Shown: positions 15,639 through 36,570, counted from the stretch's first letter. The stretch is 64,000 nt of DNA from Alphaproteobacteria bacterium (GCA_041584475.1 JBFHDX010000004.1:8576-72575); one strand, 5' to 3'. Numbers and translations are program-made. The notes: generated by a model from the sequence alone, not told the origin.

Positions 15639-17542
15639 CAGGCGTTCTCCATCTCGATTGCGTCCAGGTCCGCGCGTGCGTCGATGCGCACCAAGTGATC
15701 GTGCCCGACGGCGCGCAATACGGGGGAAGCGGTCGCGTTTTCGGCGAACGGAGGCGGCCAGGCCGCGGGGTCCGACGCGCGTTCCTCCATGAGCCGCTCG
15801 AAATGCAGCGGGTGGTCGAGGCTCGGTTCCGGGACCGCCGCCAGCAGGCCCTGGGTGTATGGGTGGACCGGGTTGCGGAACAGGATGTCTCTCGGTGCCA
15901 GCTCGACGAGGCGTCCGCGGCACATGACCGCGATGCGGTCGGCGATATAGTCGACGACGGCCAGGTTATGCGAGATGAACAGATAGGTCAGCCCGAGCGC
16001 CGACTGCAGGTCCTTGAGCAGGTTCAGGATCTGGGCCTGGATCGAGACGTCGAGCGCCGACACCGGTTCGTCGCAGATCAGAAGGTTGGGACGCAGGGCG
16101 AGGGCCCGCGCGATGCCGATCCGCTGCCTCTGGCCGCCGGAAAAGCTGTGCGGGAAGCGCCTGGCGTGACGGATGTCGAGACCGACCAGCCGCAGCAGTT
16201 CCTCGACGAGCTCATTGCGCTGCTTGCGGTCGCCGATACCGTGGATCAGCAGCGGTTCCGCGATGATGTCGGCGACGCGCATACGCGGATTCAGCGAACC
16301 GAACGGATCCTGGAATATGAACTGAATCTTGCGCCGGAAGGCCATCAGGTCATCACCCTCCAGCGCCAACACGTCAATCGGACCGTCCGGCCCGTTATAT
16401 TCCACGCTGCCGGAATCCGGGGTGAGCGCACGCATGATGATCTTGCTGAGGGTGGTCTTGCCGCAGCCGCTCTCGCCGACGAGGCCCAGGCACTCGCCGC
16501 GGCGGATTTCGAAACTGACGCCGGCGACGGCGTCGATCCGGGCGGCTTCGGCGGTGCCGATCCACGACTCCGTTCGGATCGTGAAGGTCTTTCGGACGTC
16601 GCGGACCGTCAGCAGCGGCGAGACATCGTCGGCACGACGTTCGGTGGGCTCGGCGATCGCGTGCTGCAACAGCGCCCCGGTCGGGGGCGCGATCTCGCGG
16701 ATCGGCACGAGCCGTTCCCCCGGTTCCATGCTGAACCTCGGTACGGCCTTGAGCAGGGCCTTAAGATAGGGATGACCCGGGGTGCGGAATATGTCCTCCA
16801 GCCGTCCCGATTCCATGATTTCGCCGTGATACATGACGACGACCCGCTCAGCGGCGTTGGCGACGACGCCCAGATCATGCGTGATGATCAGGACCGCCAT
16901 GCCCAGCTCCCGCTGCAGATCCCTGATCTGCTTGAGGATCTGCGCCTGGATCGTGACGTCGAGCGCGGTCGTCGGCTCGTCTGCGATCAGCAGCGCCGGG
17001 TGACATATCAGCGCCATGGCGATCATCGCGCGCTGGCGCAGGCCGCCCGACAGTTCGAAAGGATAGGTCTTCATGGCGCGGTCCGGATCCGGAAATCCGA
17101 CCAGGCGCAACATCTCGCGGGTTGCTTCGCGACCTTCCGCCCGGCTGCACGCGCGGTGCAGGTGGAGCGCCTCGGCGACCTGGTTGCCGACCGTGTGCAG
17201 CGGTGACAAGGACGTCATCGGCTCCTGGAAGATGATCGAGATGCGGCCGCCACGGATCGACCGCATTTCGCTCCCGTCGGCATCGAGGGCCGCTATGTCG
17301 ACGGGCCCGGCGCGCGTCGGGTCCCGAAACAGTATCGAGCCGGAGGTAATGCGTGCCGCCTTCGGCAGGATGCCCATGATGGCTTGCGAGACAACGGTCT
17401 TCCCGGAACCCGATTCGCCGACGAGCGCAACCGTGGAGCCCGGCGGCACCGAGAACGAGACGCCGCGTACGGCTTCGATCCGGCCTTCCGCGAGATCGAA
17501 GGACACCCTCAGGTCGCGAACCGTCAGCAGGTCGTCGGTCAC
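15638..17542 (-). CDS. ABC importer ATPase, two fused NBDs (YejF-type)
   Basis: Walker [10 protein letters not shown] and GESGCGKTT; signatures LSGGLRQR and FSGGQRQR; Walker [13 protein letters not shown] and [12 protein letters not shown]. The GTG start overlaps the upstream stop (GTGA). Confidence 0.9.
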
Positions 17543-18045
17543 GCCGCAACCCCGCGCTCGCTTCGGGTTCTCACGTCGATGCCGAGCGCGCCGAAATTGG
17601 CGACGGCGGCGTCATTGAGCGGAATCGCACGGTCTTGCGCGGTGCTGGCGACCGCCGCGGCGAGCTGCTCGAAGCGGTCGATCGTCGAATCGACGCGAAT
17701 GCGACGATGGCGCCCGCTGACCTTGAGCTGCATCCAGCCGCGCGGCGGTTCGCGACGGGTGGCGAAATAGTCGAGCCGCAACTGCGTCACATCGCGCCAC
17801 GGGATGTGACACGGCATCGGGCCGCGCGAGCGGATGCCGTCGACGGTGAGTTCGATGACGGTGGCCTGGCGCAAGCCGGTGCGTAGCGCGAAAGCGCCGA
17901 ACAGAAGTGCCACGGCCCCCAGCACGACGGCCACGACGGGCGCCGGCTCGAGCAGCAACAGCGGCCCCGCGGTGACCGCGAGACCGAAGCCGGCGCGCGC
18001 GTAATCGGCCGCGAGTACCCTCGCCGGATAACGGTGTCGGCTCAT
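17539..18045 (-). CDS. small membrane protein, unknown function (2 TM plus soluble domain)
   Basis: Starts at an internal ATG (18045-18043) of track ORF 17539..18771. Sequence reads [54 protein letters not shown].. followed by ~100 soluble residues. ATGA overlap upstream and GTGA overlap downstream. Confidence 0.5.
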
Positions 18046-18905
18046 CTGCGCGGTCCCGCGATCGTCTCGAACCCAGAGATCCAGTGACCCGCGGGATGAT
18101 CCGAGACCACCGCAACGAGACGCGACAGGAAGCGCCAGCACGCCGCATCGTGGTCTCGATGGTGGGTCAGCAGGCCGGTCGGCTCGTCGCCGTCCGCCGC
18201 GCCGGTGCGGCGCGCCGCGAGGTGGGAAATCGCCAAGCGGAGAACCGCGGCTTCGCCCACGAAGCGCCGCGTCCCGCGCCAGTCGATGATGTCCACATGG
18301 GTGTTGACGACGGCCGCACCGCTGCCGTGCCGGCGTGCGCCGTACGCCGATAGGCCGACGAGTCCGGCCTCGCCGAGGCGGTCGGCGAGGGCAGGGGCGA
18401 CGCGGTTCCACGGTGGCACGAGGATCGGCCGAAACCGCTCGCCAAAAAGGGATCGCAGGCGCCGCCGGCCGTGCGTCAATTCGTCGAGCATCACCGGCTG
18501 CGGCCGGTGCAGGCCGAACTCCGCTTTCTTCTCGGTGGCCGGCGCATGATTGATGTGCGCAAAGCCGTGCTGGAGGATCGATAGCTGGCCGCCGCGGGCA
18601 GCGATTTCGTCGACGGTTTCGGCGAGCTCGTCGCGAGCGGCGGCGGGGATAACCGCGAGCGCCAGTGGCGTCGTTCCCGCGACATTGAAGAGTCTCGACA
18701 ACTTCCTGCCGGGCCGCGTCGCGTCGTCGTCGCGCCACCAGAACGTCGCCCGCCGACCGCAGACACCCCAAGCGTCGAGTTCGGCCGTCAAGGCCGCCCA
18801 GGTCCCCGCCGCCGGGGCCACGGCGACCGCTGCGTCCACCCCGGTCATCTCCTCTGCCAGCGCCCTGCCCGCCATGCCGCGAGTATAGGCACAGTTGGGC
18901 GGCAT
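18042..18905 (-). CDS. polysaccharide deacetylase-like protein
   Basis: 287 aa reading ..ATFWWRDDDATRPG..LALAVIPAAA..ILQHGFAHINH.., which resembles the glycoside hydrolase/deacetylase superfamily. The assignment is by pattern only. Confidence 0.5.
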   Translation of the reverse strand: MPPNCAYTRGMAGRALAEEMTGVDAAVAVAPAAGTWAALTAELDAWGVCGRRATFWWRDDDATRPGRKLSRLFNVAGTTPLALAVIPAAARDELAETVDEIAARGGQLSILQHGFAHINHAPATEKKAEFGLHRPQPVMLDELTHGRRRLRSLFGERFRPILVPPWNRVAPALADRLGEAGLVGLSAYGARRHGSGAAVVNTHVDIIDWRGTRRFVGEAAVLRLAISHLAARRTGAADGDEPTGLLTHHRDHDAACWRFLSRLVAVVSDHPAGHWISGFETIAGPRR

Positions 18906-20064: not shown

Positions 20065-20657
20065 CGCTTCGTCGCCGACAGGGGGATGTTGAGCTCGACG
20101 ACCGCCGGCGTGCCGTCGCCGGCGATCGCGAACACATGGGCACAGGCCTCGCGGAGCTTGGCCGGCGGTTTGCCGGTCATGTCCCAACCGACCGCGAGGG
20201 CGTAAATGGCGCGGATCACGCCTCTGTGCGTCACCGCCAGCGTCGGTCTGCCCGCGGCCGCGACCTCGGCAAGGAATGGCCTGACGCGAGACTGCACGTC
20301 GCGCGGGCTCTCCCCGCCCGGCGCGCGAAAATCCAGGCCCCTCGCCTCCCACGCCGCCATGAGGTCGCCCAGCTGCGAGCGCAGCGCCTCGAGCGTCCTG
20401 CCTTCCCAGTCTGCCCAATCCATCTCGACGAGCCGGTCGTCGCCGCAAACCGGGCCACCGCGCAGAATCTCGGCGGTCTCCCGGGTTCGTGTCAGCGGGC
20501 TGCAGACCCACGCGAACCCGCGCAGCCGAGGCGGAACGATCCAGCGCTCGACCTCCCGGCGTCCCGCCACACTCAGCGAGACATCCGTGCGACCCTGAAC
20601 GCGTCCGACCGCATTCCACTCGGTCGGGCCGTGCCGGATTACGGCCAGTTCGGTCAA
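20061..20657 (-). CDS. histidine phosphatase (phosphoglycerate-mutase-like) family protein
   Basis: LAVIRHGPTEWN (RHG motif), SPLTRTRETA and AVTHRGVIRA. The TTG start is in TTGA overlap with the upstream stop. Confidence 0.8.
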   Translation of the reverse strand: MTELAVIRHGPTEWNAVGRVQGRTDVSLSVAGRREVERWIVPPRLRGFAWVCSPLTRTRETAEILRGGPVCGDDRLVEMDWADWEGRTLEALRSQLGDLMAAWEARGLDFRAPGGESPRDVQSRVRPFLAEVAAAGRPTLAVTHRGVIRAIYALAVGWDMTGKPPAKLREACAHVFAIAGDGTPAVVELNIPLSATKR

Positions 20658-21802
20658 CGCACGCTCCCCGGCACGGCCGGACGCGCCGCTTCGCGTATGA
20701 TCGCGTCCAGCCGCCGTGCCGCCGAGGGCAGGTCGTGCTCGCTTTCGACCCGTCGGACCGCGGCGTCGGACATCGCTTTGCGGAGGCGCGGGTCGGCCAG
20801 CAATCCCGCGATCGCAGCCGAAAACGCGCCGGCCTCGGCGGACCGGACGATGTAGGCGGTGTCACCGCCTGCGACAAGCTCGCGAACGCCGGGACGATCC
20901 CCGACGACGAGCGGCAGGCCCGCCGCCTGCGCTTCGAGCAGCGCCATTCCGTAGGCCTCGTTCACGGCGGGCCAGACACCGAGATCCGCCGCCGCGTGCA
21001 GCGCGTCGACGTCGTCCTGCTCCAGGATCCCCAGGAACCGCACCCGTTCGTCGAAGTCCAGCGCCGCCGTCACCTCGCGCCGTGCGTCTCCGCCCCCGGC
21101 GACGAGCAGTACCCATGCGCGATCGGCAAGACCGTGCAGCGCCCGCGCAAGCAGGCGATAGGAGGCGAGCTTGTCGCCGGGGCGCATCATCGCGGTCACG
21201 GCGATCCAGGGTACCGCGGGATCGATCGAGAGGCGCCGCGCGAGCCGCCGGCGGTGGCGTGCCCGCTCGGCGCGGGCGCGTCGCGGCGGACCCGCATCGA
21301 GAAACGGCCGCATCATCGTCAGGCGGCTGTCGTCCGCGAGTAACGGCCGGATGCACGCCGCGTCGTCGGGATTGAGGCAGATCACCTGGTCCGCACGCCG
21401 CAAGGCGCGCGCTACCGCCTCGTGTCCCGACGCCCAGTTTCCGCCGGCCCGTTTGGGTGCATAGCTCGCCTCGGCGACGAGGTAGGGTACGCCCAGGCGA
21501 TCGGCGACGACCGGCCCGAGCCAGTCCGGCGCGCGGTGATAGAGGTGGTAGGTGAACCACAGATCGGGCGGCACCCGTTTCGCCTGCCGCAGGTAACGTT
21601 CGGCGAGGCGTCCCGCCAGCGCCTGCAGGCGGTGCTGGCGATGCCGGTCGCCGGCGATGTCGAGGCTTCGAAACGTCGACGCCAGCTCCACGTCATGACC
21701 GGCCAGTCGCAGGGCGTCGACGAACAGGCGCGCCATGCGGCGGTCGCCGGACGGCACTGGGTGGTAAGGCGATTTCAGGGGCGCGTAGTACGCTACTCGC
21801 AT
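20654..21802 (-). CDS. glycosyltransferase family 4
   Basis: Starts at an internal ATG (21802-21800). Sequence reads MRVAYYAPLKSPYHPVPSGDRRMARLF..VWPAVNEAYGMALLEAQAAGLPLVVGDRPGVRELV. 10-nt overlap with the upstream GT4 gene. Confidence 0.75.
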   Translation of the reverse strand: MRVAYYAPLKSPYHPVPSGDRRMARLFVDALRLAGHDVELASTFRSLDIAGDRHRQHRLQALAGRLAERYLRQAKRVPPDLWFTYHLYHRAPDWLGPVVADRLGVPYLVAEASYAPKRAGGNWASGHEAVARALRRADQVICLNPDDAACIRPLLADDSRLTMMRPFLDAGPPRRARAERARHRRRLARRLSIDPAVPWIAVTAMMRPGDKLASYRLLARALHGLADRAWVLLVAGGGDARREVTAALDFDERVRFLGILEQDDVDALHAAADLGVWPAVNEAYGMALLEAQAAGLPLVVGDRPGVRELVAGGDTAYIVRSAEAGAFSAAIAGLLADPRLRKAMSDAAVRRVESEHDLPSAARRLDAIIREAARPAVPGSVR

Positions 21803-23046
21803 GCCGCGATCCGGCCTGCCTCCGACGCCACGCCAAAGCGGGCGGCGATCCCCTCGACGTTGACCGCCAGCGAGAACCGTTCGCGTACGCGCGCGGCCCC
21901 CGCGCCTCCGAGGCGTTGCCGCAAGGCCGGATCGAGGATCAGCCGGGTCAGCGCGCGAGCCAGCGACCCCGGGTCGCCGGGCTCGCACAGCATGCCGGTC
22001 CGCCGGTCGGTAATCAGTTCGGGGACCGCCGACACCGAGGTCGCGACGACGGCGACCCCCTGGCTCTGCGCCTCCATCAGGACGTTCGGCAGGCCGTCGC
22101 GGTCTCCATCCGGCGCGATCTTGCTGGCGAGCGCAAAGATGTCGGCGCGACGCAGCTCGCCGAGGACGGTCTCCTGCGATTGAGGGCCGAGCCACGTCAC
22201 CCTCTCGGCGATGCCCAGCCGCGCTGCAAGCTGCTGCAGCTCGCGCATCCGGATGCCGCCACCGATATGTCGGAACCGCCAAGCCAGGCCAGGGGCAAGG
22301 CTCGCAAGCGCGCGCAAGAGATCGGGATATCCCTTCTTGTCGACCGCACGACCGACCGAGAGGATGACCACCGGGTCCGCCGGGTCGCCGCCGTCGCGCG
22401 GCGGACGATCGCTGCCGGGCGGCGGAAAGCGGTCGAGATCGACACCGTGGTAGACCAGACCGACCGTTTCGGGTGCCGGCGCGAGGCCGCGCAGCCGCTC
22501 GAGTCCCGCGGCCGTACAGGTCACCGCCCACGCGACGTCCGCGAGCTTGTCCCTGATCTCCCAGTCCGGCGACGTCCAGATGTCTTTCGCATGTGCCGCG
22601 ACACTCCACGGCAGGTCGCGCATCAACGCTGCGTAACGTGCCACCGAGGCGGGCGTGTGGATGAAATGCGCGTGCAGATGGCGGACATCATCCTCCAGTT
22701 CCAGCGCGAGCACGCAAGCCTGCCCGAACCGTCGGACGCGATTGCGCGTCGGGTCCCGTCGCAGGTCGCGAAGCCATGCGGATCGCGCCGCGGCGAAGCC
22801 GGGCCGCCGCCGGGCCGCCGCCACGGCGCCAAGGACGCGCAGCGGCTCCCGATGCAGGTACTCCGGCAGGTATCGGACAGGGGCGCCGATCTCCCGATGC
22901 ACGCGGTGCGTCCGGGCGTCGGTCGGTCGGCGCAGCGAGATCAGCCGAAGCTCGAGGCCGCGACGTTCGAGCTCGAGGATTTCCTGTGCGATGAAGCTCT
23001 CTGACAGGCGCGGGTACCCCTTGAGGATGACGGCAACCGCCGACAC
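21793..23046 (-). CDS. glycosyltransferase family 4 (WcaL-like)
   Basis: 417 aa reading MSAVAVILKGYPRLSESFIAQEILELERRG..DGLPNVLMEAQSQGVAVVATSVSAVPELI. Confidence 0.8.
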   Translation of the reverse strand: MSAVAVILKGYPRLSESFIAQEILELERRGLELRLISLRRPTDARTHRVHREIGAPVRYLPEYLHREPLRVLGAVAAARRRPGFAAARSAWLRDLRRDPTRNRVRRFGQACVLALELEDDVRHLHAHFIHTPASVARYAALMRDLPWSVAAHAKDIWTSPDWEIRDKLADVAWAVTCTAAGLERLRGLAPAPETVGLVYHGVDLDRFPPPGSDRPPRDGGDPADPVVILSVGRAVDKKGYPDLLRALASLAPGLAWRFRHIGGGIRMRELQQLAARLGIAERVTWLGPQSQETVLGELRRADIFALASKIAPDGDRDGLPNVLMEAQSQGVAVVATSVSAVPELITDRRTGMLCEPGDPGSLARALTRLILDPALRQRLGGAGAARVRERFSLAVNVEGIAARFGVASEAGRIAACE

Positions 23047-23049: not shown

Positions 23050-24294
23050 CTACTGCTCCGCGCCGGCGACCGCCAGTCGCTGTTCGGTCCGTGCCGCGTC
23101 GGGCCGGCGCGCGCGCTCCTGCAGGAGCCAGTCCGCCAGCCGATTCACCGTATCGAGCCCGTCCAGCATGCCGCGCGGCATGGCGTGCGACGGCCGCGAT
23201 TGGCTGGCAATTCCGCGCAAGGCGTCGATCATTTCCGCGGGTCGACGCACGCCGTCGTTCGCGAGCATGCGCACGAGGCCGAGATCCTGGGCGCGGCTGG
23301 CGCGGATGTACTGCTCCATGCGCGGAACCGTTCGCGGCACGATGAGCGCCGGCTTGTCGAACGAGAGGATCTCGCAGAACGTATTGTAACCGCCCATCGC
23401 GACGACTCCGACGGCCCTGTCGAGCAGGCTCTCCATATGGGCGTCGAACGTGATCGCCTCGACGTCGGGGAGGCGGTCGCAGCGGGCGAGGAACTCCGCC
23501 TGATCATCCGATGCCATGAACGGCCCGAGGACGATGAGGGCGGGAAAGGGAAGGTCGGTCGCCGACTCGTAGGCCCGCAGGACCCAATCCACCATCTCCT
23601 GGCCGTCGCCGCCACCACCGGGTGTGACCAGGACGTAAGGTGGCGCGATCTTGGACAGCGGCGAATGGGCCGTCGATCCGCTCGGAAGATCGCGGCGCAG
23701 ATAACCCGTGAAGCGGATCTTCTCCCGAATCGATCGCGGAATGCCTATGCCCGCGAGCGGATCGCAGATATCCGGCATGCCGTAGACCCAGATTTCGTCG
23801 TAGTAATCGCGCAGGGCCGGTGCCGCCTGCTTGCGGTTCCATTCCGAACGCAGGGTCACCGGATCATCGAGGATATCGCGGAGGCCGAGCACGAGGGGGA
23901 TTCCCCTGCGTTTCAACAGCTTGAGCGTCTCCGAGACCTCGCCCCGCAGCCCCAGCGGTTCCTTGTCGACGATAAACAGGTCGGGGTCGAACGCCGCCGC
24001 GGTGTGCTGCACGATCGACGCCCGTATCGCCAGGGTCTCCTCGATGTCGATATGGAGGGAAAGCGGCGTGTAGTCGCCGTTGCGCAACTTGATGACCCCC
24101 GGCACACGCACGAAGTCGACGCGTGCACGGAAATCGAAATTTCCGATTATCGGTGAACCCGAAAGGATGAGAACCGAGAGATTCCGTCCATTGCCGACGA
24201 GCGAATGCGCGATCGCCCGACAGCGCCGCAAATGTCCCAAGCCGAACGTGTCATGGCTATAGATCAGGACACGGGCATCCCCGTCTCTGCCCAT
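23050..24294 (-). CDS. glycosyltransferase (GT28/MurG C-terminal-domain type)
   Basis: 414 aa reading ..RVLIYSHDTFGLGHLRRCRAIAHSL..VAMGGYNTFCEILSFDKPALIVPR... First gene of the minus-strand string. Confidence 0.75.
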   Translation of the reverse strand: MGRDGDARVLIYSHDTFGLGHLRRCRAIAHSLVGNGRNLSVLILSGSPIIGNFDFRARVDFVRVPGVIKLRNGDYTPLSLHIDIEETLAIRASIVQHTAAAFDPDLFIVDKEPLGLRGEVSETLKLLKRRGIPLVLGLRDILDDPVTLRSEWNRKQAAPALRDYYDEIWVYGMPDICDPLAGIGIPRSIREKIRFTGYLRRDLPSGSTAHSPLSKIAPPYVLVTPGGGGDGQEMVDWVLRAYESATDLPFPALIVLGPFMASDDQAEFLARCDRLPDVEAITFDAHMESLLDRAVGVVAMGGYNTFCEILSFDKPALIVPRTVPRMEQYIRASRAQDLGLVRMLANDGVRRPAEMIDALRGIASQSRPSHAMPRGMLDGLDTVNRLADWLLQERARRPDAARTEQRLAVAGAEQ

Positions 24295-24488: not shown

Positions 24489-27197
24489 ATGGACTCCACC
24501 ATCTTCAGATACATACTGCGCTACAGCAAGGCGCAGCAGCTCTGGCTGCTGGCGGTCATCGTCGTCTCGTACCCGTTCCTCTACCTGTCGCTGGATATGC
24601 CGAAGCTGATCGTCAACCGCGCCATCGGCGACCAATCTGGGCCCCCTTACGACATCCCTCTGTTCGGCGTGCCGGTTTTCTCCGTCACGGCGAGTCAGAT
24701 CGAATTCCTGATCACGCTGAGCCTGATCTACCTGCTGCTGGTCCTGATCAACGGCGTGCTGAAATATTACATCAACGTCTACAAGGGCCGACTCGGCGAG
24801 CGCTTGCTGCGGCGACTGCGATACCAACTCTACGAGCGCATCCTGCGCTTCCCGATTCCGCATTTCCGCAAGGTTAGCCAGGGCGAGATCATTCCGATGA
24901 TCACGGCGGAGGTCGAGCCGCTTGGCGGCTTCATCGGCACGGCCTACGCCGATCCGTTGTTCCAGGGCGGGCAGCTGCTGATCATCCTTGCCTTCATCAT
25001 GGTCCAGGACCCCATCCTCGGGGCCGCCGCCATCGCGCTCTATCCGCTGCAGATCTATATCGTGCCGAAACTGCAGCGGAAGGTGAACGAGCTCGGCAAG
25101 GAGCGCGTCCGCACCGTCCGACTGCTGTCCGACCACATCGGCGAATCCGTGTCCGGGATTTCGGAGCTGCACGCGCACGACACGATCCGGCTCGAACTGT
25201 CGCGCTTCGCCCGCCGACTCGGCGAGATCTACTGGATCCGTTACGACATCTATCGCCGCAAATTCTTCATCAAGTTTCTCAATAATTTCATCGACAAGCT
25301 TACACCGTTTTTCTTTTTCTCCATCGGCGGCTGGCTCGTCATCGAAGGTGGACTGAGTTTCGGGGCGCTCGTCGCTGTGCTGGCAGCATACAAGGACCTC
25401 GCTGCCCCGTGGAAAGAGATGCTGACGTGGTACCAGCAGAAGGAAGACGCGCGCATCAAGTACGAGCAGGTCGTCGAACAGTTCGATCCGCCCGGACTGC
25501 TCGATCAGCGCCGCCTCCTCGCCGAGCATGACGATGCGGCCGAGCTCAAGCTCGACGGCGAGATCGCGGTCAAGAACGTCAGTCTGATCGACGAGGACGG
25601 GCGCCGGCAACTCGACGGCGTGACGACGACGATCGCCCCGGGAAGCCACATTGCCGTCGTCGGCGACGGCGACAGCGGCAAGGGCGACCTCCTCACCGTG
25701 ATGGCCGGGCTGGTGGAGCCGACGGGGGGATCGATCTCGGTCGGCGAGTGGGACATCAAGACGGCACCGCGGGCGATTACCGGGCGCCTCATGGCCTATG
25801 TCGGGCCGAGCGCCTACATCCATGCGGGCACGCTCGCTGCCGCGCTGGTCTACGGGTTGAAACACCGGCCCGTTGCGGAACGGCAATACGAGGGCGCAGA
25901 GCTCAAATTCCGCCAGGCGGAAGTGGCGGAAGCGGCGGACGCTGGCAACATCACGCTCGATTACGGCGCGGACTGGGTCGACTACGAGGCGGCGCAGGTG
26001 TCGGGACCGGACGAGCTCCAGCAGGCGATGCTCGAGGTGCTCCACGCGGTCGATCTCGCCGACGACACGTATGGCTGGGGACTCCGCGGCAGGTTCGATC
26101 CCGACGACGACCCCGCATCGGCGGAGAAGATCCTTGAAGCGCGATCGGCGGTCCGCGAGCGCCTGTCCGATCAATCGGTTTCCCGCCTCGTCGACCCGTT
26201 CGATGCGGCGAGCTACAACATGAACGCGACCGTTGCCGAGAACGTTCTCTTCGGCGTACCGCTGGGCGACGTCTTCGCGGAAGATCGAATCGCCGAGCAT
26301 CCGTACATGAAACGGACGCTCGAGCGTGTCGGGCTGACCGGTGACTTCCTGAAGATCGGCGAGCGCGTCGCGGAGACGATGGTCGAACTGTTCGCCGGTC
26401 TTCCCCCCGGGCACGAGTTCTTCGACCGGTTCAGCTTCATCTCGGCGGAAGACCTGCCCGAATTCCAGACGATCCTGGGCCGCGCCGCACGAGGCCTGGA
26501 CGCGCTCAGCGCGGGCGATCGCAGCAAGCTGATAGCGCTCCCGTTCAAGCTGATCCCGGCACGACACCGACTCGATCTGATCGATGAGAAGTTGCGCGAG
26601 AGGCTGCTCGAGGCACGACGCGCCTTCGCCGCGGACCTGCCCGCCGAGCTCGCGGACCAGATCGCCTTTTTCGATCTGGAAGCCTACAATCGGGCAGCGA
26701 CGATCCAGGACAATATCCTGTTCGGCAAGATCGATTTCGGCCAGCCCAACGCCGAGCAGCGGGTCGGAGCCCTGCTTGCAGACGTGCTGGACGGGCTGGG
26801 CATGCGGAACGTCGTCATGCGGATCGGCCTTAACTCGGAGACCGGATCCGGGGGCTCGCGGCTCTCGCCGACGCAGCGCCAGAAACTGGCCCTCGGCCGT
26901 TGCCTGCTGAAGAAACCGGCGGTTCTGCTGATCAACGAAGCGGCCGCGGGCTTCGAGTCGCGCCTGCAGAACAAGATCGTCGGGAACGTGTTGCAGGCCA
27001 GCCGCGGCCGCACCGTGATCTGGTCGCTGAGCAACGTTGCCCTGGCGAACCGGTTCGATAGGGTGCTGGTGATGGATCGCGGCCGCATCGTATCCGAGGG
27101 CGCTCCCGACGAGCTGCTGGCCAAGCGGGACGCACCGTTCGGCCGGCTTCTCGGTACCGAAGACGAAGAGGTCGAAGCGACGAGGACAGGGCAATGA
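24489..27197 (+). CDS. ABC exporter-type TMD-NBD protein with degenerate, expanded NBD
   Basis: 902 aa. The ABC-exporter membrane domain (res 1-~330) is followed by an NBD with GDGDSGKGD (nt 25662-25685), LSPTQ (nt 26862-26876) and VLLINE (nt 26922-26939). About 400 residues separate Walker A from the signature, against ~100 in canonical NBDs. Confidence 0.8.
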   Translation: MDSTIFRYILRYSKAQQLWLLAVIVVSYPFLYLSLDMPKLIVNRAIGDQSGPPYDIPLFGVPVFSVTASQIEFLITLSLIYLLLVLINGVLKYYINVYKGRLGERLLRRLRYQLYERILRFPIPHFRKVSQGEIIPMITAEVEPLGGFIGTAYADPLFQGGQLLIILAFIMVQDPILGAAAIALYPLQIYIVPKLQRKVNELGKERVRTVRLLSDHIGESVSGISELHAHDTIRLELSRFARRLGEIYWIRYDIYRRKFFIKFLNNFIDKLTPFFFFSIGGWLVIEGGLSFGALVAVLAAYKDLAAPWKEMLTWYQQKEDARIKYEQVVEQFDPPGLLDQRRLLAEHDDAAELKLDGEIAVKNVSLIDEDGRRQLDGVTTTIAPGSHIAVVGDGDSGKGDLLTVMAGLVEPTGGSISVGEWDIKTAPRAITGRLMAYVGPSAYIHAGTLAAALVYGLKHRPVAERQYEGAELKFRQAEVAEAADAGNITLDYGADWVDYEAAQVSGPDELQQAMLEVLHAVDLADDTYGWGLRGRFDPDDDPASAEKILEARSAVRERLSDQSVSRLVDPFDAASYNMNATVAENVLFGVPLGDVFAEDRIAEHPYMKRTLERVGLTGDFLKIGERVAETMVELFAGLPPGHEFFDRFSFISAEDLPEFQTILGRAARGLDALSAGDRSKLIALPFKLIPARHRLDLIDEKLRERLLEARRAFAADLPAELADQIAFFDLEAYNRAATIQDNILFGKIDFGQPNAEQRVGALLADVLDGLGMRNVVMRIGLNSETGSGGSRLSPTQRQKLALGRCLLKKPAVLLINEAAAGFESRLQNKIVGNVLQASRGRTVIWSLSNVALANRFDRVLVMDRGRIVSEGAPDELLAKRDAPFGRLLGTEDEEVEATRTGQ

Positions 27198-27698: not shown

Positions 27699-28223
27699 TT
27701 GCGGAGCGCGCCCGTGAGTCGGCTCGACAGCGTCATCCGCCGCCTGCAAGCGCAGCGGATCTGCCTCGACTGGGCGACCCAGGCGGTGGCCGGACGGCCT
27801 GGCGCGATCCTCGAGCTCGGCCTCGGCAACGGCCGCACCTACGATCATCTGCGGCAGCGCTGTCCGGAGCGCGAGATCTACGCCTTCGAGCGGCAGTTGA
27901 GCGCCCACCCGGATTGCGTCCCGGATGACGACCACCTGTTTCTCGGGGATCTCGTCGATACGTTGCCGGCGGCCGCGCGCAAGCTCGGTCGCTGCGCCAT
28001 CCTCGTGCACTGCGACATCGGTACGGGCGACGCCGCACGCAACGCCCGCGTCGCCTCGCGGATCGGTCCCCTTATCGGGAACCTCGTTCGCCCCGATGGC
28101 ATCGTGCTGAGCGACCAGCGACTGCCCGTCGCCACGGCATGGCAGGAGCTCGCCCTCCCGGACGGTGTGGCCGCGGGACGGTATTTCCTCTATCGCGTCC
28201 GCGCTCGAGGCGGCGCGGAATGA
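27699..28223 (+). CDS. small SAM-methyltransferase-like protein, paralogue 1
   Basis: ..ILELGLGNGRTYDHLRQRCPEREIYAFERQL..HLFLGDLVDTL..AILVHCDIGTG... The start is TTG at 27699 or GTG at 27714. Confidence 0.55.
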   Translation: MRSAPVSRLDSVIRRLQAQRICLDWATQAVAGRPGAILELGLGNGRTYDHLRQRCPEREIYAFERQLSAHPDCVPDDDHLFLGDLVDTLPAAARKLGRCAILVHCDIGTGDAARNARVASRIGPLIGNLVRPDGIVLSDQRLPVATAWQELALPDGVAAGRYFLYRVRARGGAE

Positions 28224-28285: not shown

Positions 28286-28834
28286 ATGACCGCAGATCGC
28301 GAAGCCCGCTCCGCTTCCGGCCCGGACCCGCAAGACGCGCTCGAACGCATGCTCGCCCGCCTCGAGGCGCAACGCGCCTGGCTCGACTTCGCGGCCGAGC
28401 GCATTGCCGCGGTGCCGGGACCGGTGTTCGAGCTTGGGCTGGGCAAGGGTCGTACCTACGACCGCATGCGTCGCGTCATGGCCGATCGCGAGATATTCGC
28501 CTTCGATCGCGAACTCCATTGCTCGCCGCGCCTGAGCCCGCTGCCGGAGCACCTGTTCCTGGGCGATTTCCGCGATACCCTGCTTGCCGCGGCCGAGCGG
28601 TTCGGCCGTTCGGTGGCCCTGGTCCATGCCGATATCGGCAGCGAAGTGCCCGCGCGAGACGCGGCGATCTGCCGGGATATCGGCCCCTTGATCGAGCGCG
28701 TCGTACGACGCCAGGGGCTGGTTCTCTGCGATCGCCCGCTGCCCCTGTCCCGCCCCGGCTGGGAACCCCTGCCGCCGCCGGCGGCTGCCGCGACGGCGGG
28801 GTGGCCCTATTTCGGATGGTGCCGGTCGCGCTGA
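28286..28834 (+). CDS. small SAM-methyltransferase-like protein, paralogue 2
   Basis: Starts at an internal ATG of track ORF 28139..28834. Sequence reads ..VFELGLGKGRTYDRMRRVMADREIFAFDREL..HLFLGDFRDTL..VALVHADIGSE.. and is colinear with paralogue 1. Confidence 0.55.
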   Translation: MTADREARSASGPDPQDALERMLARLEAQRAWLDFAAERIAAVPGPVFELGLGKGRTYDRMRRVMADREIFAFDRELHCSPRLSPLPEHLFLGDFRDTLLAAAERFGRSVALVHADIGSEVPARDAAICRDIGPLIERVVRRQGLVLCDRPLPLSRPGWEPLPPPAAAATAGWPYFGWCRSR

Positions 28835-28941: not shown

Positions 28942-29730
28942 CTACGCCGCGAGGTCGAGGATTACGGGTACGTGATCGGACGGTTTTTCCCAGCCGCGGG
29001 CGTCTCGCAGGACGGACGCGCCGGAGAGCCGACCCGCGAGGTCGGGCGATGCCCAGAAGTGATCGAGCCGCCGGCCGCGATCGGAGGCCGCCCAATCGCG
29101 CGCGCGGTAACTCCACCACGAATAGAGCTTGTCGCGAGGCGGGAAGAAACGTCTGACGGCGTCGATCCAGGCACCCGCCTCGAGGGCTCGTTCCAGCTTC
29201 TCGACTTCGATGGGCGTGTGACTCACTACGTTGAGCAGCTGCTTGTGCGACCAGACGTCCGTGGGCAACGGGGCGACGTTCAGGTCGCCGGCGACGATAA
29301 CCGGCCGGCCGGTCCCGCCGAGCTGCTTCGACCAGCCGGTCATCTCGTCGAGAAAGGCGAGCTTATGCGCGAATTTTTCGTTGATCTCCGGATCAGGGGC
29401 GTCGCCGCCGGCCGGAACGTAGAGACAGTGCAGATCGATGCCGTCGACGCGCGCCGCGACGTGCCGGCTGTCGGCCCGATCGCAGAAGCGCCGGTCCGCG
29501 AGCCGCTGCAGCGGCAGTCGAGAGAGAATCGCCACCCCGTTGTAGCTCTTCATGCCCTGAAAGACGGCATGCTCGTATCCGAGCCCGGCGATCGCCCCGC
29601 GCGGAAAGGCGTCGTCGACCACCTTGGTCTCCTGCAGACAAATGACGTCCGGCGCGGCCTCGGCAACGAGGCGCTCCAGGAGCGGCAGGCGCAGGCGTAC
29701 CGAGTTGATGTTCCAGGTGGCGATGCGCAT
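28942..29730 (-). CDS. xthA: exodeoxyribonuclease III
   Basis: MRIATWNINSVRLRLP..VICLQETKV..IVAGDLNVAP..SDHVPVILDL. Confidence 0.9.
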   Translation of the reverse strand: MRIATWNINSVRLRLPLLERLVAEAAPDVICLQETKVVDDAFPRGAIAGLGYEHAVFQGMKSYNGVAILSRLPLQRLADRRFCDRADSRHVAARVDGIDLHCLYVPAGGDAPDPEINEKFAHKLAFLDEMTGWSKQLGGTGRPVIVAGDLNVAPLPTDVWSHKQLLNVVSHTPIEVEKLERALEAGAWIDAVRRFFPPRDKLYSWWSYRARDWAASDRGRRLDHFWASPDLAGRLSGASVLRDARGWEKPSDHVPVILDLAA

Positions 29731-29817
29731 GGCAGTCTCCGAGACGGCGCTGAGGACTCGATGGTCGCGGCCCGCCCCGCATGCGAGGCAGGGATCGGGG
29801 GCCGCGGCGGCCGGACT

Positions 29818-30633
29818 CTAGGCCGCGTTGTTGCGTCGCCGGCCGCCGCGACGCTCGGCGCCGCCGCGGCCGGCATGGCGGTTGCGGCAGGCGTCGCCGA
29901 AAGCCGCGAACATCGCCCGCGACAACGGCCAGTCGAGCGCTACCGGATGTTCGGGATGCCACTGCACCGACAGCGCAAAGGCTCGGGCCCCGGTGACGCT
30001 TGTCGCTTCGATGACACCGTCTTCGCTCACCGCCTCGATCTCCAGCCGGTCGGCCAGGCGGTCGATGGCCTGGGCGTGCAGCGAGTTGACGAGCGCCGTG
30101 TCGGCGCCGCCGTTGAGCGCCCGGAGCACCCCGCCTTCCCGGATGCTGATGCGGTGGCACGCGCGGTAGCGGTCATCGTACGGCAGGCTCTTGTTCGAGC
30201 GGTGGTCCCGCTTTCCGGGCAGTTCATGGACGTTCTGATGCAGGGTGCCGCCCAGCGCGACGTTGAGCTCCTGGTGACCCCGGCAGATGGCGAATAGCGG
30301 AACGCCGCTGTCGAGCGCGCCGCGGATGGCCGGCAGGGTGGTCGCGTCCCGCGCCGCGTCGTGCGCGGTTCCCGCTCGGCTCCGCCCGCCGCCGTAACGC
30401 TCCGGCTCGACGTTGGACGGGCTCCCCGTGAGCAGAAGTCCGTCGAGCCGGGACATCAGGTCGGCGCTATCGTACCAGTCGCCCAGCGCCGGTATCAGCA
30501 CCGGCATGCATTGCGCGGCGTGCACGACGGACAGGATGTATTTCTGGCCGACCCGGTGGTAGGCGTCGCCCGTTTGCGGCGACATGACGCACGCCGGAAT
30601 ACCGACGAGGGGCCGATCGCTTCCCGGCATCAC
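29818..30633 (-). CDS. class I glutamine amidotransferase / gamma-glutamyl-GABA hydrolase (PuuD, peptidase C26) family
   Basis: ..GLLLTGSPSNVEP..LFAICRGHQELNVALGGTL..SVQWHPE.. with the Cys-His-Glu triad context. Confidence 0.8.
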   Translation of the reverse strand: MMPGSDRPLVGIPACVMSPQTGDAYHRVGQKYILSVVHAAQCMPVLIPALGDWYDSADLMSRLDGLLLTGSPSNVEPERYGGGRSRAGTAHDAARDATTLPAIRGALDSGVPLFAICRGHQELNVALGGTLHQNVHELPGKRDHRSNKSLPYDDRYRACHRISIREGGVLRALNGGADTALVNSLHAQAIDRLADRLEIEAVSEDGVIEATSVTGARAFALSVQWHPEHPVALDWPLSRAMFAAFGDACRNRHAGRGGAERRGGRRRNNAA

Positions 30634-30781
30634 GCGCTACGCCCGGGAGCAACGGGCAGGACCGCACAAGGCGAAGGCAGGCGGACCTCAGCGATCGGCG
30701 GAGCGGTCCCCGAACCGCCCCGATGTCTGGCGCCGCCGGCAGATATCCCGGCATCGCGTGCCACGGATCGGATCGGTCGTT

Positions 30782-31513
30782 TCATTTCTCCGGTCGTTTC
30801 CGGTCGAAGGTGTTCACGAACCGGAACAGGTCGTTGTCGAGTCGCAAACCGTAGCGCGGATCCATCAGGGTGACCTGGATGCGCTGGCCCTGCGCGTCGA
30901 GAATCGTCCAGCTTCTGAGGGTGACCGGATTCTGTTGGAATGTCATGCTGATGCGACCGATCTCCGGGTCTTCGGCATCGACCAGGTCGAGGCGGATCGT
31001 ATTGCTGCGACGTTCGATTCCCGTGATCACCAGGCCGTCGGAGAACGAGAATTCCTCGCGCAGGAGCACGTCGGCCGGCGTCTTGCTCAACGGCAGGTAC
31101 GTGACCTGCTCGAGCTGCTTGTCGACATAGATGAACCACCTGCCGTCCGAAACGAGCAGATAGGGAACCGGCGGATCGTATTCGAAGCGCATGCGACCCG
31201 GTCGTTTCAAATAGAAATTTCCCCTCGCATAGCTGCCGCTCGCCGTGAGCTGCACGAACTCGGCCTGAAGCGTCGTTATGCCGTTCAGGAACGCCTCGAT
31301 CTCCGCCACCGCAGCGCGATCCCGCACCGTCAGCGCGATCGGTTGCGGCGGCGCCGCAGCCGGCGCCTCGCCGACGCCGACCGCCAGCGACAGGACAAGC
31401 GCGAAAAGCGTCACGCTCGAGATGCGGGCCCAGACGGGTCCGACGCAACCGCTAGCGGTTTCCGCCAGCGAGGACTTCACGCTTGCCAACATGGTTTGCG
31501 GGGCTGACCACAC
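30782..31513 (-). CDS. lolA: outer-membrane lipoprotein carrier LolA
   Basis: ..[49 protein letters not shown]... It follows ftsK, as in many Proteobacteria. The start is uncertain: the track start overlaps the ftsK 3' end by 62 nt, and a later start near 31492-31410 is possible. Confidence 0.7.
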
Positions 31514-33791
31514 CTTGCTTCTCCATCTGCTCGATTATCCGTGCCGCACGATTGTAACCGATCTGCAAGTGGCGCTGTATGAAACTGGTCGATGCGCGAC
31601 CCTCGCGAACCACCAGCTCGACGGCGCGCTGATAGAGCTCATCGCCCGCCGCCTCGGCGCCGAATCCGTCCAGACCAGTCTCCTCCTCCTCCTCGGTGAT
31701 CCCTTCGACGTAGGCCGGCTCACCTTGCGTACCGAGGTAGTGCGCGACCGCCTCCACCTCGTGATCGTCGACGAACGGTCCGTGAATGCGGGTGATCCGC
31801 CCGCCGCCCGCCATATACAGCATGTCGCCCTGGCCCAGCAGCTGTTCCGCGCCCTGTTCGCCCAGGATGGTGCGACTGTCGATCTTCGAGGTGACCTGGA
31901 AGCTGACGCGCGTCGGAAAGTTGGCCTTGATCGTGCCGGTGACGACGTCGACCGAGGGCCGTTGCGTGGCCATGATGAGATGGATGCCTGCGGCGCGCGC
32001 CATCTGCGAAAGACGCTGGATCGCGGCCTCGATCTCCTTGCCCGCGACCAGCATGAGGTCCGCCATCTCGTCGACGACGACGACGATGTAGGGCAGGGGG
32101 GTAAGGTCGAGCGGCTGGTCTTCGTAGACGGGGCGTCCGGTCTCCGGATCGAACCCCGTCTGAACCTTGCGCATCAGCACCTCGCCCTTCTTGCGCGCAT
32201 CGCTCAGCCGGGCGTTGTAGCCCTCGATGTTGCGCACGCCGAGCTTGGACATGGCGCGATAGCGCTCCTCCATCTCGCGCACCGTCCATTTGAGCGCGAC
32301 GACGGCCTTCTTGGGCTCGGTCACGACCGGAGACATCAGGTGCGGGATGCCGTCATAGATCGAGAGTTCGAGCATTTTCGGGTCGATCATGATGAAACGG
32401 CAGATGTTCGGCGTCATGCGGAACAGCAGCGAGAGGATCATCGCGTTGATGCCGACCGATTTCCCGGAACCCGTCGTCCCCGCGACCAGCAGGTGCGGCA
32501 TGCGCGCCAGGTCGACGACGACCGGGGAACCGCCGATATCCTTGCCGAGCGCCAGGGGCAGCTTCGCCGAGGCCTGTTCATAGGCGCGGGACGCCATCAG
32601 TTCGCGCAGGAATACCGTCTGTCGCGAACTGTTCGGCAGCTCGATGCCGATGACACTGCGTCCTGGAATCGTTGCGATGCGGGCCGAAACCGCGCTCATC
32701 GAGCGGGCGATGTCGTCCGAGAGGCTGATTATCCGGCTGGTCTTTATGCCCGGAGCGGGTTCCAGCTCGTACAGGGTGACCACCGGGCCGGGCCGAACCT
32801 TCACGATTTCACCGCGAATGCCGAAATCCTCGAGGACCTGCTCGAGGAGGCGCGCGTTCTGCTCGAGCGCATCGGGCGACATGGTCTTTGCCCGCGCTTC
32901 CGAGTCCGGCACCGGCTCGAGAAGATCGAGCGGCGGCACCCGGAATTCGCCGTTCGGGCCGCCCAGGTTCAGCGACGCCTGGCTCGCCTTCGCCGGCGTC
33001 GCCGCTTTCTTCGGCTTGCTGAGCCGCGAGCGGCGTTCCGGTCGACGCTCCGGCGGCATCTGCCATTCCGCCGCGCCGTCCTCGGGCCCGGCCTCGAGAT
33101 ACGGTTCGGCACGATCGACCCCGTTGCCGCGCCGCAGTTGCGGCAAGCGAATTCCCCAGGCCGCTGCCGAGGAGGCGCCACCTGCAGGAATGAGCCGGCC
33201 GAACCGCGCGCCGAGGGAGCGCCACTCCGCCCGCGACAGGCCCATCGTCCAGAATGTGAGCAGCAGGCTCAGCAAGCCGGCGACGGTGCCGATGACCAGC
33301 GGGTTCGTCAACGGACCGGCGCCGCCCGCCAGGCGCGCCGCCTGCGAAACGATGAGCGTGCCGACCAGCCCCCCGAGTCCGGGATCCAGCGGCCAGGATT
33401 CCGGTGCCGGCGCCGCGGCGAGGGCGACGGAACCGAAGAGCAACGCGAATACCAGCGAAGCGATACGCAGCGACGGCTGCGGCAGCGCGTGCCGGCTGGC
33501 CAGGCGGCCCCCCCAGGCGACGAGAACGGGTACGAGGAGCGCCGCCGCCAGCCCCAGAGTCTGCAGGGAGAGGTCCGAAATCACGGCCCCGGGTCTGCCC
33601 AGGAAATTGTTGATCCGCCCCGTTCCGCGAGCCGTGTTCAGCGACGGGTCCGACGGATCGTAGCTGAGCAGCGCAATGACGAACATCGCCCCGGCCGCGA
33701 GCAGCAGAAGCCCCAGCAGCTGCAGCACCCGGCGCCGCACGAATTCCACGAATCCGGCCGGGAGCAAAGCCTTGCGACGCCGCGTGGCCAT
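31452..33791 (-). CDS. ftsK: DNA translocase FtsK
   Basis: 779 aa with N-terminal TM segments, Walker [18 protein letters not shown], and a C-terminal gamma domain ..[30 protein letters not shown]. Confidence 0.9.
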
Positions 33792-33794
33792 CGC

Positions 33795-35006
33795 CTATCG
33801 CTCCAGCGCCTCGGCGAGGCGCGTGAGGCCGGCTTCGGCGGTGGCCGCGTCGTGGATCAGGGCAACGCGGATGTATCGGCGGCCGGGATCGCCGCCATTG
33901 ACGGGGTCTGGCCGGCTCATATAGCTACCCGGCATGACCTTGACGGCTCCGTGGCGCCACGCCTTTCGGGCCGCGGCCTCGCCGTCGCCGACATCGAGCC
34001 AGAGAAAGAAACCGCCCGGCGATTCGTGATAGCCCGCGCGATTGCCGAGGATCCGCCGTGCCAGGTCGAACAGCGTGCGATAATGGGCGCGCATCCGCTC
34101 GACATGGACCTCGTCGCGCCACAATGCGGCCGCGGCCGCCTGAATCGGCCCGGGTACCTGGGCGCCGCCGTAGCTGCGCAGGCGCTTTAGGCGCGATATC
34201 GCGGCTTCGCCGCCCGCCACGAAGCCCGCCCGCAGCCCCGCCGCGTTGGATCGCTTCGACAGCGAATGGAATACCAGCAGATGATCGAGGCCGGTCCCCA
34301 GCCGGGCGCAGGCCTCCAGCCCGCCGACGGGGGGCGAACCGCGCCAGATCTCGGAATAGCACTCGTCGAGCGCGAGCAGGAAATCTTGCTCCTGGGCCAG
34401 TCCGATGAGGTCCTCGAGCTGCTCGAGGGACGCCACCGCGCCCTGCGGATTCGCCGGCGTGCACAGGTAGGCGAGCGCGGTGCGCTCGAGCAGCGCACGT
34501 TCGAGACCGCCATAGTCGGGCAGGAAGCCGCTGTCCGCGGTTGCCGCGACGGGAACCGGCTCCGCCCCGGCCATGACCGCGGCACCGTAATAGACGTGGT
34601 ACATGGGATTGGGCATCAGCACCGCCGACCGACCGGCGCCGCCGGAGGCGGTCGACCTGCCGACGGCGATCAGCGCCACCTGAAACAGCGCCTCGCGCGT
34701 ACCGCTCACCGCAACGACGTTGCGTTCGGGGTCGATCATGCCGGACGGCAGGTGGTAGCGGCGGGCGAGCCACTCCGCCGCCGCTGCCCGGAAATCCTCT
34801 GATCCGTTCGCCGGCGGGTAGCGGTTCCAGAGATCGGCATGGCGCGCCACCGTTTCGGCGACGAAATCCGGCTGCGGCAGCTGCGGCTCGCCCATATGCA
34901 TGAGGACGGGCTCCAGGCCCTCGGCCGGCGCGACGTCGCGCAGCAGCGTGGCGAGGCGCTGGAACGGATAGTCGCCGAGGCGGTCGAGAGCGGGATTTTC
35001 GCGCAT
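33795..35006 (-). CDS. class I/II PLP-dependent aminotransferase (DapC/AlaC-like)
   Basis: MRENPALDRLGDYPFQRLATLL.. and ..FHSLSKRSNAAGLRAGF (PLP-lysine motif). Ends 3 nt before the ftsK start. Confidence 0.8.
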   Translation of the reverse strand: MRENPALDRLGDYPFQRLATLLRDVAPAEGLEPVLMHMGEPQLPQPDFVAETVARHADLWNRYPPANGSEDFRAAAAEWLARRYHLPSGMIDPERNVVAVSGTREALFQVALIAVGRSTASGGAGRSAVLMPNPMYHVYYGAAVMAGAEPVPVAATADSGFLPDYGGLERALLERTALAYLCTPANPQGAVASLEQLEDLIGLAQEQDFLLALDECYSEIWRGSPPVGGLEACARLGTGLDHLLVFHSLSKRSNAAGLRAGFVAGGEAAISRLKRLRSYGGAQVPGPIQAAAAALWRDEVHVERMRAHYRTLFDLARRILGNRAGYHESPGGFFLWLDVGDGEAAARKAWRHGAVKVMPGSYMSRPDPVNGGDPGRRYIRVALIHDAATAEAGLTRLAEALER

Positions 35007-36567: not shown

Positions 36568-36570
36568 CTC

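Follow-up and report, generated by a model that had tools for sequence, protein, structure and literature searches.

What does a protein with the architecture of an ATP-binding cassette (ABC) exporter do once the residues that bind and hydrolyze Mg-ATP have been substituted? This question is raised by a 902-aa protein encoded in a 64,000-nt stretch of DNA from an Alphaproteobacteria bacterium (GCA_041584475.1, JBFHDX010000004.1:8576-72575; hereafter, the window). A first-pass annotation of this DNA described a normal-looking exporter domain with six transmembrane helices followed by an altered nucleotide-binding domain (NBD), and proposed that the product is either a non-hydrolytic ABC derivative or in need of a partner. 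Our results support this proposal and favor a probably non-hydrolytic protein, as 181 relatives also have non-canonical motifs. We consider it very probable that the whole family joins a non-catalytic NBD with a cyclic-nucleotide-binding (CNB) partner. The first-pass annotation had overlooked an insert in the NBD, the loss of the A-loop aromatic residue, the size of the family, and a conserved gene cluster, and a downstream cyclic nucleoside monophosphate (cNMP) protein that it mentioned only in an aside proved to be central as a conserved and sometimes fused partner.

The ABC gene is an intact open reading frame (ORF) with coding-type composition (GC1 0.67, GC2 0.40, and GC3 0.84; window GC 62-74%). 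The profile search suggested earlier recovered both expected domains, Pfam ABC_membrane (PF00664) at aa 69-298 (E 3.4e-21) and ABC_tran (PF00005; 44.6 bits vs. a cut-off of 25), the latter in two stretches on either side of an insert. The solved exporters Ste6 and ABCB1 align with the protein (HMMER E-values down to 1e-24 to 1e-30). An AlphaFold2 (AF2) model of the full-length protein (predicted local distance difference test score [pLDDT] 85.5, predicted template modeling score [pTM] 0.81) contains six long transmembrane helices, in agreement with the exporter domain first described, and Foldseek matched it to TmrAB, MsbA, PCAT1, TM287/288, and HlyB (TM 0.55-0.64, normalized to the target), with SUR structures also among the fold matches. 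The protein therefore has both features of the type IV ABC exporter fold, a six-helix ABC_membrane domain and a C-terminal ABC-type NBD fold. Still, it scored far under the cut-offs of all 25 NCBIfam exporter families listed, the top match being MsbA (TIGR02203, MsbA_lipidA; 151.5 vs. 602 bits), and it failed the whole-protein NCBIfam cut-off for each of HepA, CydD/C, LssB, NHLM ABC, and ChvA. Because the ABC gene is a single half-transporter gene, a homodimer is implied. The transmembrane domain (TMD) is the best-conserved region, with a mean majority-residue frequency of 0.68 compared to 0.55-0.58 in the parts of the NBD across an alignment of 181 full-length family members, from which all family frequencies below are taken. 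Its invariant blocks include EVEPLGGF and KFFIKFLNNF.

Relatives of this TMD also occur on their own. Phaeobacter gallaeciensis pGal_B134 (L092 7773-9266) encodes a 497-aa protein with an ABC_membrane domain only and no NBD, and further TMD-only relatives recur on Roseobacter plasmids (matches H63-H75). Identity to the window protein is 41-43% over aa 1-332 of the latter. The Phaeobacter gene lies in a copper-resistance island with genes for a copper oxidase, a plastocyanin-like protein, TolC, SCO, and PCuAC. These TMD-only proteins may be an NBD-less sister lineage of the window TMD, whose lineage would therefore be able to exist without any NBD.

We assigned the catalytic motifs by residue-by-residue HMMER alignment to the solved exporters Ste6 and ABCB1. 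This alignment bore out every substitution first reported in the Walker A, Q-loop, signature, Walker B, D-loop, and H-loop motifs; the nucleotide coordinates given for them were also correct, save that the Walker A range (25662-25685) spans only 8 of the 9 residues quoted. Beyond the Walker and signature motifs listed in Table 1, the Q-loop Gln position is Pro440, and Gln is absent from all three Q-loop-like segments of the window protein. The D-loop SALD is replaced by AGFE (aa 820-823), the H-loop His position is Ser848, and the A-loop aromatic residue is missing (Asp368 region). With the Walker A, Q-loop, signature, Walker B, and H-loop all non-canonical, the protein lacks the defining features of a catalytically competent ABC ATPase, and we therefore file it as ABC-fold rather than as an ABC ATPase. 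The description of an altered NBD was thus accurate for the motifs but incomplete, as the NBD is also split by the overlooked insert of ~265 aa.

A single chain of this protein contributes degenerate motifs to each side of the composite ATP site, the Walker A/B and H-loop on one side and the signature and D-loop on the other, so even a canonical partner could not provide a fully consensus site. This bears on the idea that the protein is half of a heterodimer whose canonical half-transporter, encoded elsewhere, supplies an active ATP site as in TM287/288, TmrAB, and BmrCD. A single degenerate site is a frequent feature of heterodimeric exporters (PMC7756269). However, the genes of known heterodimers are normally adjacent, and such exporters keep one consensus site while the degenerate site still binds MgATP; here, we found neither an adjacent second half-transporter gene nor asymmetric degeneracy with a consensus signature kept. 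Our neighborhood counts cover the best 80 of at least 508 loci, from 80 distinct assemblies with one family copy each, and 79 of these 80 have no canonical half-transporter within ±10 kb, the full span around the gene over which a partner was sought in other genomes. Among ORFs in the 80 loci and the window, the only ones with both a Walker A motif and LSGGQ were importer ATPases and one unrelated exporter (L036). The 64-kb window itself has no second ABC exporter. The earlier statement that no partner NBD gene lies nearby consequently holds for exporter half-transporters, but it missed a canonical double-NBD importer ATPase, the only canonical NBD in the window. Overall, we regard a heterodimer as improbable.

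The window protein belongs to a family that is a large, widespread, and uncharacterized variant of the ABC exporter architecture. A word-indexed search found >120 proteins of 861-943 aa, mostly from Alphaproteobacteria/Rhodospirillales, with 53-74% identity over 96-99% coverage, along with an identical copy of the window protein on other contigs (P0001). An exhaustive phmmer search with the insert only, against 1.84 billion representatives of clusters at 50% identity, gave 857 matches at E<=1e-3 and 583 at E<=1e-10. Among GTDB species representatives, at least 508 loci encode family members, and cultured genera that carry them include Azospirillum, Thalassobaculum, Nisaea, Inquilinus, and Sneathiella. 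A plasmid collection added 331 records, with 144 from Rhizobium and 80 from Sinorhizobium (on pSymB); full-length identity was ~40%. Full-text literature searches turned up no description of the family. Databases name these proteins “ABC transporter ATP-binding protein,” “ABC transporter transmembrane domain-containing protein,” or “multidrug transporter,” and these current annotations are likely misleading.

Since every catalytic motif of the window sequence is off consensus, it could in principle come from an ordinary MsbA-like exporter through pseudogene decay or sequencing error. This was ruled out, leaving a probability that we consider negligible: the frame is intact with coding composition, the identical protein recurs on other contigs, and the motif states and the insert are common to >180 full-length relatives. 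The first-pass annotation had pointed out that orthologs with canonical motifs would speak for decay. None of the 181 members has more than 4 of 7 canonical catalytic states, which refutes decay of a single copy and favors the non-hydrolytic reading.

The census indicates which positions the family has kept. In Walker A, the glycines are well conserved (G392 96%, G397 94%), K398 is present in 73% of members (Arg in 14%, Ala in 8%), S/T399 in only 38%, and position 400 is Glu/Asp in 72%. Only 14 of 181 members (8%) retain the Q-loop Gln and 8 (4%) the H-loop His, with Asn at the latter position in 52%. The signature retains L792 (92%), S793 (70%), and Q796 (85%), while G794 (4%) and G795 (15%) are rare and the GG pair is essentially never retained. 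Walker B has Asp in 12% and Asn in 72%, Glu817 occurs in 62% (Asp there in 19%), and the D-loop Asp (D823) in 81%.

These frequencies could also be read as those of an exporter that is still ATP-driven or ATP-gated through a non-canonical site, with the CNB protein modulating only its rate. The P-loop glycines and Lys and the catalytic Glu are retained by many members, the window protein among them, and the replacements are conserved too (Walker B Asn, H-loop Asn, and the acidic residue after Lys), which could mark an alternative chemistry. However, the combination found here, in which the A-loop aromatic and the signature glycines are gone along with the Q-loop Gln, H-loop His, and Walker B Asp, is not known from any active ABC ATPase. 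Such motif changes are treated as inactivating (PMC7756269). Moreover, the orthologs in Rhizobium leguminosarum and Sinorhizobium meliloti lack the Walker A Lys (GSGAEA and GGGGEA, respectively, with Ala/Gly in its place) and the catalytic Glu (Walker B FNR and FNQ, with Arg/Gln), yet retain the TMD and the insert. The shared function of the family therefore cannot depend on these two residues, and conservation of the TMD and insert but not of the ATP motifs indicates purifying selection on the protein rather than on ATP catalysis. We accordingly rate a non-canonical ATPase as rather unlikely.

Gene length varies slightly among the rhizobial orthologs. In S. meliloti 1021 pSymB (L093/NC_003078.1 841723-844426), the ABC gene aligns over 2704 nt, compared to 2703 nt in other strains, suggesting a 1-nt indel in this reference strain (a frameshift or sequencing error). 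The gene is 2702 nt in a few other assemblies.

The insert that interrupts the NBD (aa ~459-722) is helical, has no counterpart in canonical NBDs, and accounts for the length of the protein. In alignments with PDB structures, aa 431-458 and aa 723-746 both align to a single canonical Q-loop segment, and a third Q-loop look-alike lies at aa 567-590. We divided the region into three modules (Table 1) and compared slices of the family alignment with hhalign. Module 2 matched module 3 with 96% probability (E 2e-9, 59 columns), module 1 matched module 2 with 81% probability (E 1.2e-5, 22 columns), and module 1 matched module 3 with 53% probability (E 1.4e-4, 23 columns), while 12 controls that used unrelated slices of the protein reached <=1.2%. 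These profile-profile matches and low controls argue that the insert is the product of tandem duplication, which gave the NBD two extra, diverged copies of its Q-loop/helical-subdomain segment. Many positions within it are invariant, and module 2 carries the family-invariant motifs PFDxxxYNxNATVAENLLFG, LPPGHEFF, and ARHRL. The NBD and insert are largely helical in the full AF2 model, with pLDDT mostly >90. The insert matched no Pfam family at E<=1, and Foldseek gave no fold match in the PDB for an AF2 model of the insert only (best E 0.84), although a fold may have been missed because this isolated model was only moderately confident (pLDDT 79).

By contrast with the ATP site of the ABC protein, the nucleotide site of its partner has been kept. 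The start codon of the CNB gene overlaps the stop codon of the ABC gene (ATGA), and a CNB homolog occurs in 79 of the 80 loci, directly downstream on the same strand in 77. The 156-aa product contains the phosphate-binding cassette GEIA...RTA, in line with the G-E-x-A...R-[ST]-A pattern, and the cassette residues G83, E84, A86, R93, T94, and A95 are nearly invariant across 88 loci. It reached only 42.8 bits vs. a cut-off of 161 for TIGR03896 (cyc_nuc_ocin). In some members, the two proteins are one: 17 of the 181 are >=1005 aa long, and all 9 of those scanned are fusions of ABC_membrane, a split ABC_tran, and a C-terminal cNMP_binding domain. Two fused members (P0201 and P0215; L083 1798-5418) continue beyond the cNMP-binding domain into a GGDEF domain, a hint of cross-talk with c-di-GMP signaling.

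A possible source of the signal is a 450-aa protein with a class III adenylate/guanylate cyclase domain, encoded just beyond an Opp-type importer in the window. The distant locus L087 encodes an ortholog of it with 51% identity, and in L044, L051, and L060 the gene right after the CNB gene codes for a cyclase domain. In another locus (L082), an Apyc1-like metallo-beta-lactamase gene and an Ion_trans channel gene (5192-5971 and 4066-4872) lie directly upstream of a fused ABC-cNMP member; the former possibly encodes a cyclic-nucleotide phosphodiesterase fold. A link to the cGMP-controlled encystment of the Azospirillum clade is a lead that found no support in the literature examined; the R. centenum and Clr literature examined does not mention the ABC-CNB cluster.

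A CNB protein beside a membrane protein also recalls anti-phage defense, in which a Pycsar-type effector uses a cNMP-binding domain to trigger a membrane-disrupting domain. The CNB protein does match the cNMP-binding part of PycTIR and related PADLOC effector models (E 2e-18), and the Apyc1-like gene adjoins one fused member. However, these matches are limited to the generic CNB domain of the 156-aa protein, with none over an effector domain; PADLOC left the ABC protein unmatched, and the cyclase encoded nearby has a generic class III domain. Unlike patchy defense islands, the family also shows stable vertical synteny with FtsK, LolA, and Xth in at least 508 species representatives. We thus judge a defense role to be very improbable.

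The ABC-CNB pair commonly sits in a larger cluster (Table 1). A 194-bp intergenic region separates the ABC gene from the divergently oriented gene for a GT28/MGT-like glycosyltransferase (GT28a), which is present in 75 of the 80 loci and in the clusters of R. leguminosarum and S. meliloti; no sequence relative of GT28a was found in the PDB. A GT4 glycosyltransferase (GT4a) occurs in 73 loci and in the rhizobial clusters, and its nearest solved relatives, PimB', MshA, and BshA, suggest a lipid or small molecule as its likely acceptor. GT4b, conserved from about ORF residue 268, is found in 60 loci and is missing from the rhizobial cluster, while GT28b, conserved from ORF residue ~183-272, is found in 60 loci and the rhizobial clusters. 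The conserved 287-aa protein has a weak DUF2334 match (E 0.035) as its sole database support and no PDB relative was found; its RDDDA and LQHGFAH motifs recall NodB/CE4-type deacetylases, and we presume that it could be carbohydrate deacetylase-like. The importer ATPase occurs in 57 loci and its substrate-binding protein (SBP) in 52. On the other side of the ABC gene, the two Methyltransf_17 genes occur in 52 loci and are absent from the rhizobial cluster. Taken alone, these presence counts for the cluster genes (52-75 of 80) are weak evidence.

The rhizobial clusters are more informative about linkage. On R. leguminosarum plasmid pRLgr12_2 and S. meliloti pSymB, nine genes are co-directional: the importer ATPase, SBP, two permeases, GT28a, GT4a, GT28b, the ABC gene, and the CNB gene, with the four importer genes directly upstream of the glycosyltransferases. 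The layout is divergent in the window, and the rhizobial clusters are on plasmids/chromids. The glycosyltransferases and importer are still beside the ABC gene in distant metagenomic members (L087 and L088). Gene content that outlasts rearrangement, replicon transfer, and a drop to ~40% identity argues for a functional unit. Three other loci (L089, L084, and L082) have the ABC-CNB pair only, without glycosyltransferases or importer, and we therefore take the pair to be the core and the glycosyltransferase/importer module to be a frequent accessory.

This arrangement is relevant to whether the protein transports anything at all. It could instead be a membrane-anchored, cNMP-responsive regulator or scaffold of the glycosyltransferases or the Opp-type importer, much as SUR is for KATP channels. 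ABC regulators and channels with degenerate sites are known (SUR and CFTR), SUR was among our Foldseek matches, the invariant motifs of the insert would suit a protein-docking surface, and the conserved cluster includes an importer with its own canonical ATPase. Yet, conservation peaks in the TMD, which has the full six-helix architecture, more than an anchor needs, and ABC-CNB pairs occur where there are no glycosyltransferases or importer to regulate. We consider a pure regulator possible but doubtful.

Taken together, these results could be explained by a glycoconjugate translocator or regulator that is under cyclic-nucleotide control and independent of hydrolysis; we give this composite model about even credence. 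Under this model, the ABC protein would act as a homodimer without ATP hydrolysis, with its inactive NBDs and their helical expansion forming a regulatory platform. The CNB subunit would bind cAMP or cGMP, possibly from the nearby class III cyclase, and dock onto this platform. Docking would shift the NBD-like dimer, and coupling to the conserved TMD would open or close a translocation path. Judging from the gene neighborhood, the most likely cargo would be a product of the co-clustered GT28-type and GT4 enzymes, either a glycolipid or a small glycoside/oligosaccharide, which would follow its own gradient or be passed on instead of being pumped. The Opp-type importer may import a precursor or recycle the product.

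Several observations weigh against this composite model. None of the fused members sampled (L081, L082, and L084) shows the link to glycosyltransferases, and unrelated housekeeping genes are syntenic as well (for example, Xth in 43 of 80 loci), so part of the neighborhood signal reflects phylogenetic inertia. CNB domains also bind other ligands; that of HetC binds ppGpp (PMC10986499). In addition, the window protein keeps Lys398 and Glu817, and the Walker A glycines and Lys are fairly well kept family-wide. The putative ATPase inactivity of the window protein and its family is read from sequence alone, and the window protein may bind nucleotide or hydrolyze it weakly.

A stronger version of the composite model would make the family a new mechanistic class, namely, a cNMP-gated, ATP-hydrolysis-independent translocator. 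In such a class, the NBD dimer would have become a receiver for the CNB subunit because catalysis was lost and the helical subdomain triplicated, and cAMP/cGMP would switch the TMD and release the glycoconjugate. We advance this only tentatively and think it more likely wrong than right. ABC exporters are defined by ATP-driven alternating access, and the known exceptions (CFTR, SUR, and heterodimers with one degenerate site) still have one or more sites that work or bind ATP. If the degenerate ATP site, repeat-derived insert, and obligate CNB sensor hold together, an exporter scaffold can be rewired to another input, and bacterial cAMP/cGMP signaling would gain a non-transcriptional membrane target. 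Members on S. meliloti pSymB, on R. leguminosarum plasmids, and in Azospirillum, all genetically tractable, make the hypothesis directly testable.

Comparison with known systems places the family between several precedents. It shares its domain order (a six-helix TMD and then an NBD) and fold with MsbA, Sav1866, the PCAT1 core, and HlyB, but differs from MsbA/Sav1866-type exporters in its non-canonical ATP motifs, the insert that splits its NBD, and its obligate CNB partner. SbmA/BacA have an ABC-exporter-like TMD without an NBD and are proton-driven, with SbmA importing peptides, and are thus a precedent for transport by an exporter-type TMD dimer without ATP hydrolysis. By contrast with SbmA, the family retains a full, expanded, and apparently inactive NBD. 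In MloK1/CNG channels and the Pycsar effector PycTM, a CNB domain controls a membrane domain, but our family has an ABC exporter TMD in place of an ion channel or simple transmembrane effector, and the setting is housekeeping rather than a defense island. TM287/288, TmrAB, BmrCD, MsRv1273c/72c, TAP, CFTR, and SUR illustrate a common principle: an ABC nucleotide site that no longer hydrolyzes ATP can serve structure or regulation instead (PMC7756269). That review of degenerate sites covers only cases that retain one active site, and the phrase “two degenerate” does not occur in it (PMC7756269). CFTR, a channel, and SUR, a regulator, both derived from the ABC fold, are the nearest conceptual relatives, together with exporters that have one degenerate site. 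The combination with a CNB domain has precedents in peptidase-containing ABC exporters that bear cNMP domains, among them HetC, whose CNB-type domain is required for function (PMC10986499). However, the HetC domain lies at the N-terminus, its in vitro ligand is ppGpp and not cAMP, and HetC depends on its catalytic Glu (PMC10986499), whereas in our family the CNB domain is C-terminal or separate, its predicted cNMP-contacting residues are canonical, and the ATPase site appears degenerate. The bacteriocin-transport-associated proteins of TIGR03896 resemble the family in having a CNB protein by an ABC exporter, but the window CNB protein matches them weakly.

Table 1. Features of the ABC-CNB locus and its surroundings, in window coordinates
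Feature	Position (nt)	Strand	Basis or remark
ABC exporter-fold protein gene, 902 aa, degenerate NBD	24489-27197	+	Intact open ORF, Pfam, AF2
TMD, aa 1-335, six long helices	24489-25493	+	DSSP of AF2 model
Walker A-like loop GDGDSGKGD, aa 392-400	25662-25688	+	Lys398 kept; GKGD for canonical GK[ST][ST]
Module 1, aa 428-562: Q-loop-like segment (Pro440 for Gln) and helical piece	25770-26174	+	Ste6 alignment
Module 2, aa 563-720: second Q-loop/helical-subdomain-like copy	26175-26648	+	hhalign, invariant columns
Module 3, aa 721-812: helical-subdomain copy at canonical position, bears LSPTQ	26649-26924	+	Ste6/ABCB1 alignment
Signature-like LSPTQ (canonical LSGGQ), aa 792-796	26862-26876	+	Alignment
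Walker B-like VLLINE (canonical hhhhDE), aa 812-817	26922-26939	+	Asp to Asn, Glu817 kept
Walker B-like, D-loop, and H-loop stretch	26922-27032	+	Alignment
Stand-alone cNMP-binding (CNB) protein, 156 aa	27194-27664	+	PF00027 E 1.1e-20
Two tandem Methyltransf_17 (S-adenosylmethionine methyltransferase) genes after CNB gene	27699-28223, ~28316-28834	+	Pfam E 2.2e-55, 2.4e-37
GT28/MGT-like glycosyltransferase GT28a	23050-24294	-	Pfam Glyco_tran_28_C
GT4 glycosyltransferase GT4a	21793-23046	-	Pfam Glycos_transf_1 E 3e-29
Second GT4 glycosyltransferase GT4b	20654 to ~21800, start approximate	-	Pfam Glycos_transf_1, C-terminal part of ORF 20654-22609
GT28/MurG-like glycosyltransferase GT28b	18919 to ~20330, start approximate	-	Glyco_tran_28_C E 2.6e-12
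Conserved 287-aa protein, no family assignment	18042-18905	-	Present in 54/80 loci
Opp/Gsi-type ABC importer operon	11554-17542	-	Pfam/NCBIfam
Importer ATPase, canonical double-NBD, GsiA-type	15638-17542	-	Pfam/NCBIfam
Importer family-5 SBP	13752 to ~15580	-	Pfam/NCBIfam
Two importer permeases	12723-13721 and 11554-12726	-	Pfam/NCBIfam
Class III adenylate/guanylate cyclase-domain protein, 450 aa	10193-11545	+	Pfam Guanylate_cyc E 1.5e-11; just beyond Opp-type importer
tRNA-Gly	41547		
tRNA-Thr	63443		

No signs of mobile elements were found around the ABC gene in the window. The remaining neighborhood (28942-35006 and 35257-53259) consists of chromosomal housekeeping genes, including those for exodeoxyribonuclease III, peptidase C26, LolA, FtsK, an aminotransferase, AmtB, a 1685-aa NAD-glutamate dehydrogenase, and PurH. 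At the opposite end of the window, the minus strand (1633-4800) encodes a 1055-aa protein that combines tetratricopeptide (TPR) repeats with Sulfotransfer_3 and JmjC_2 domains, an unusual fusion.

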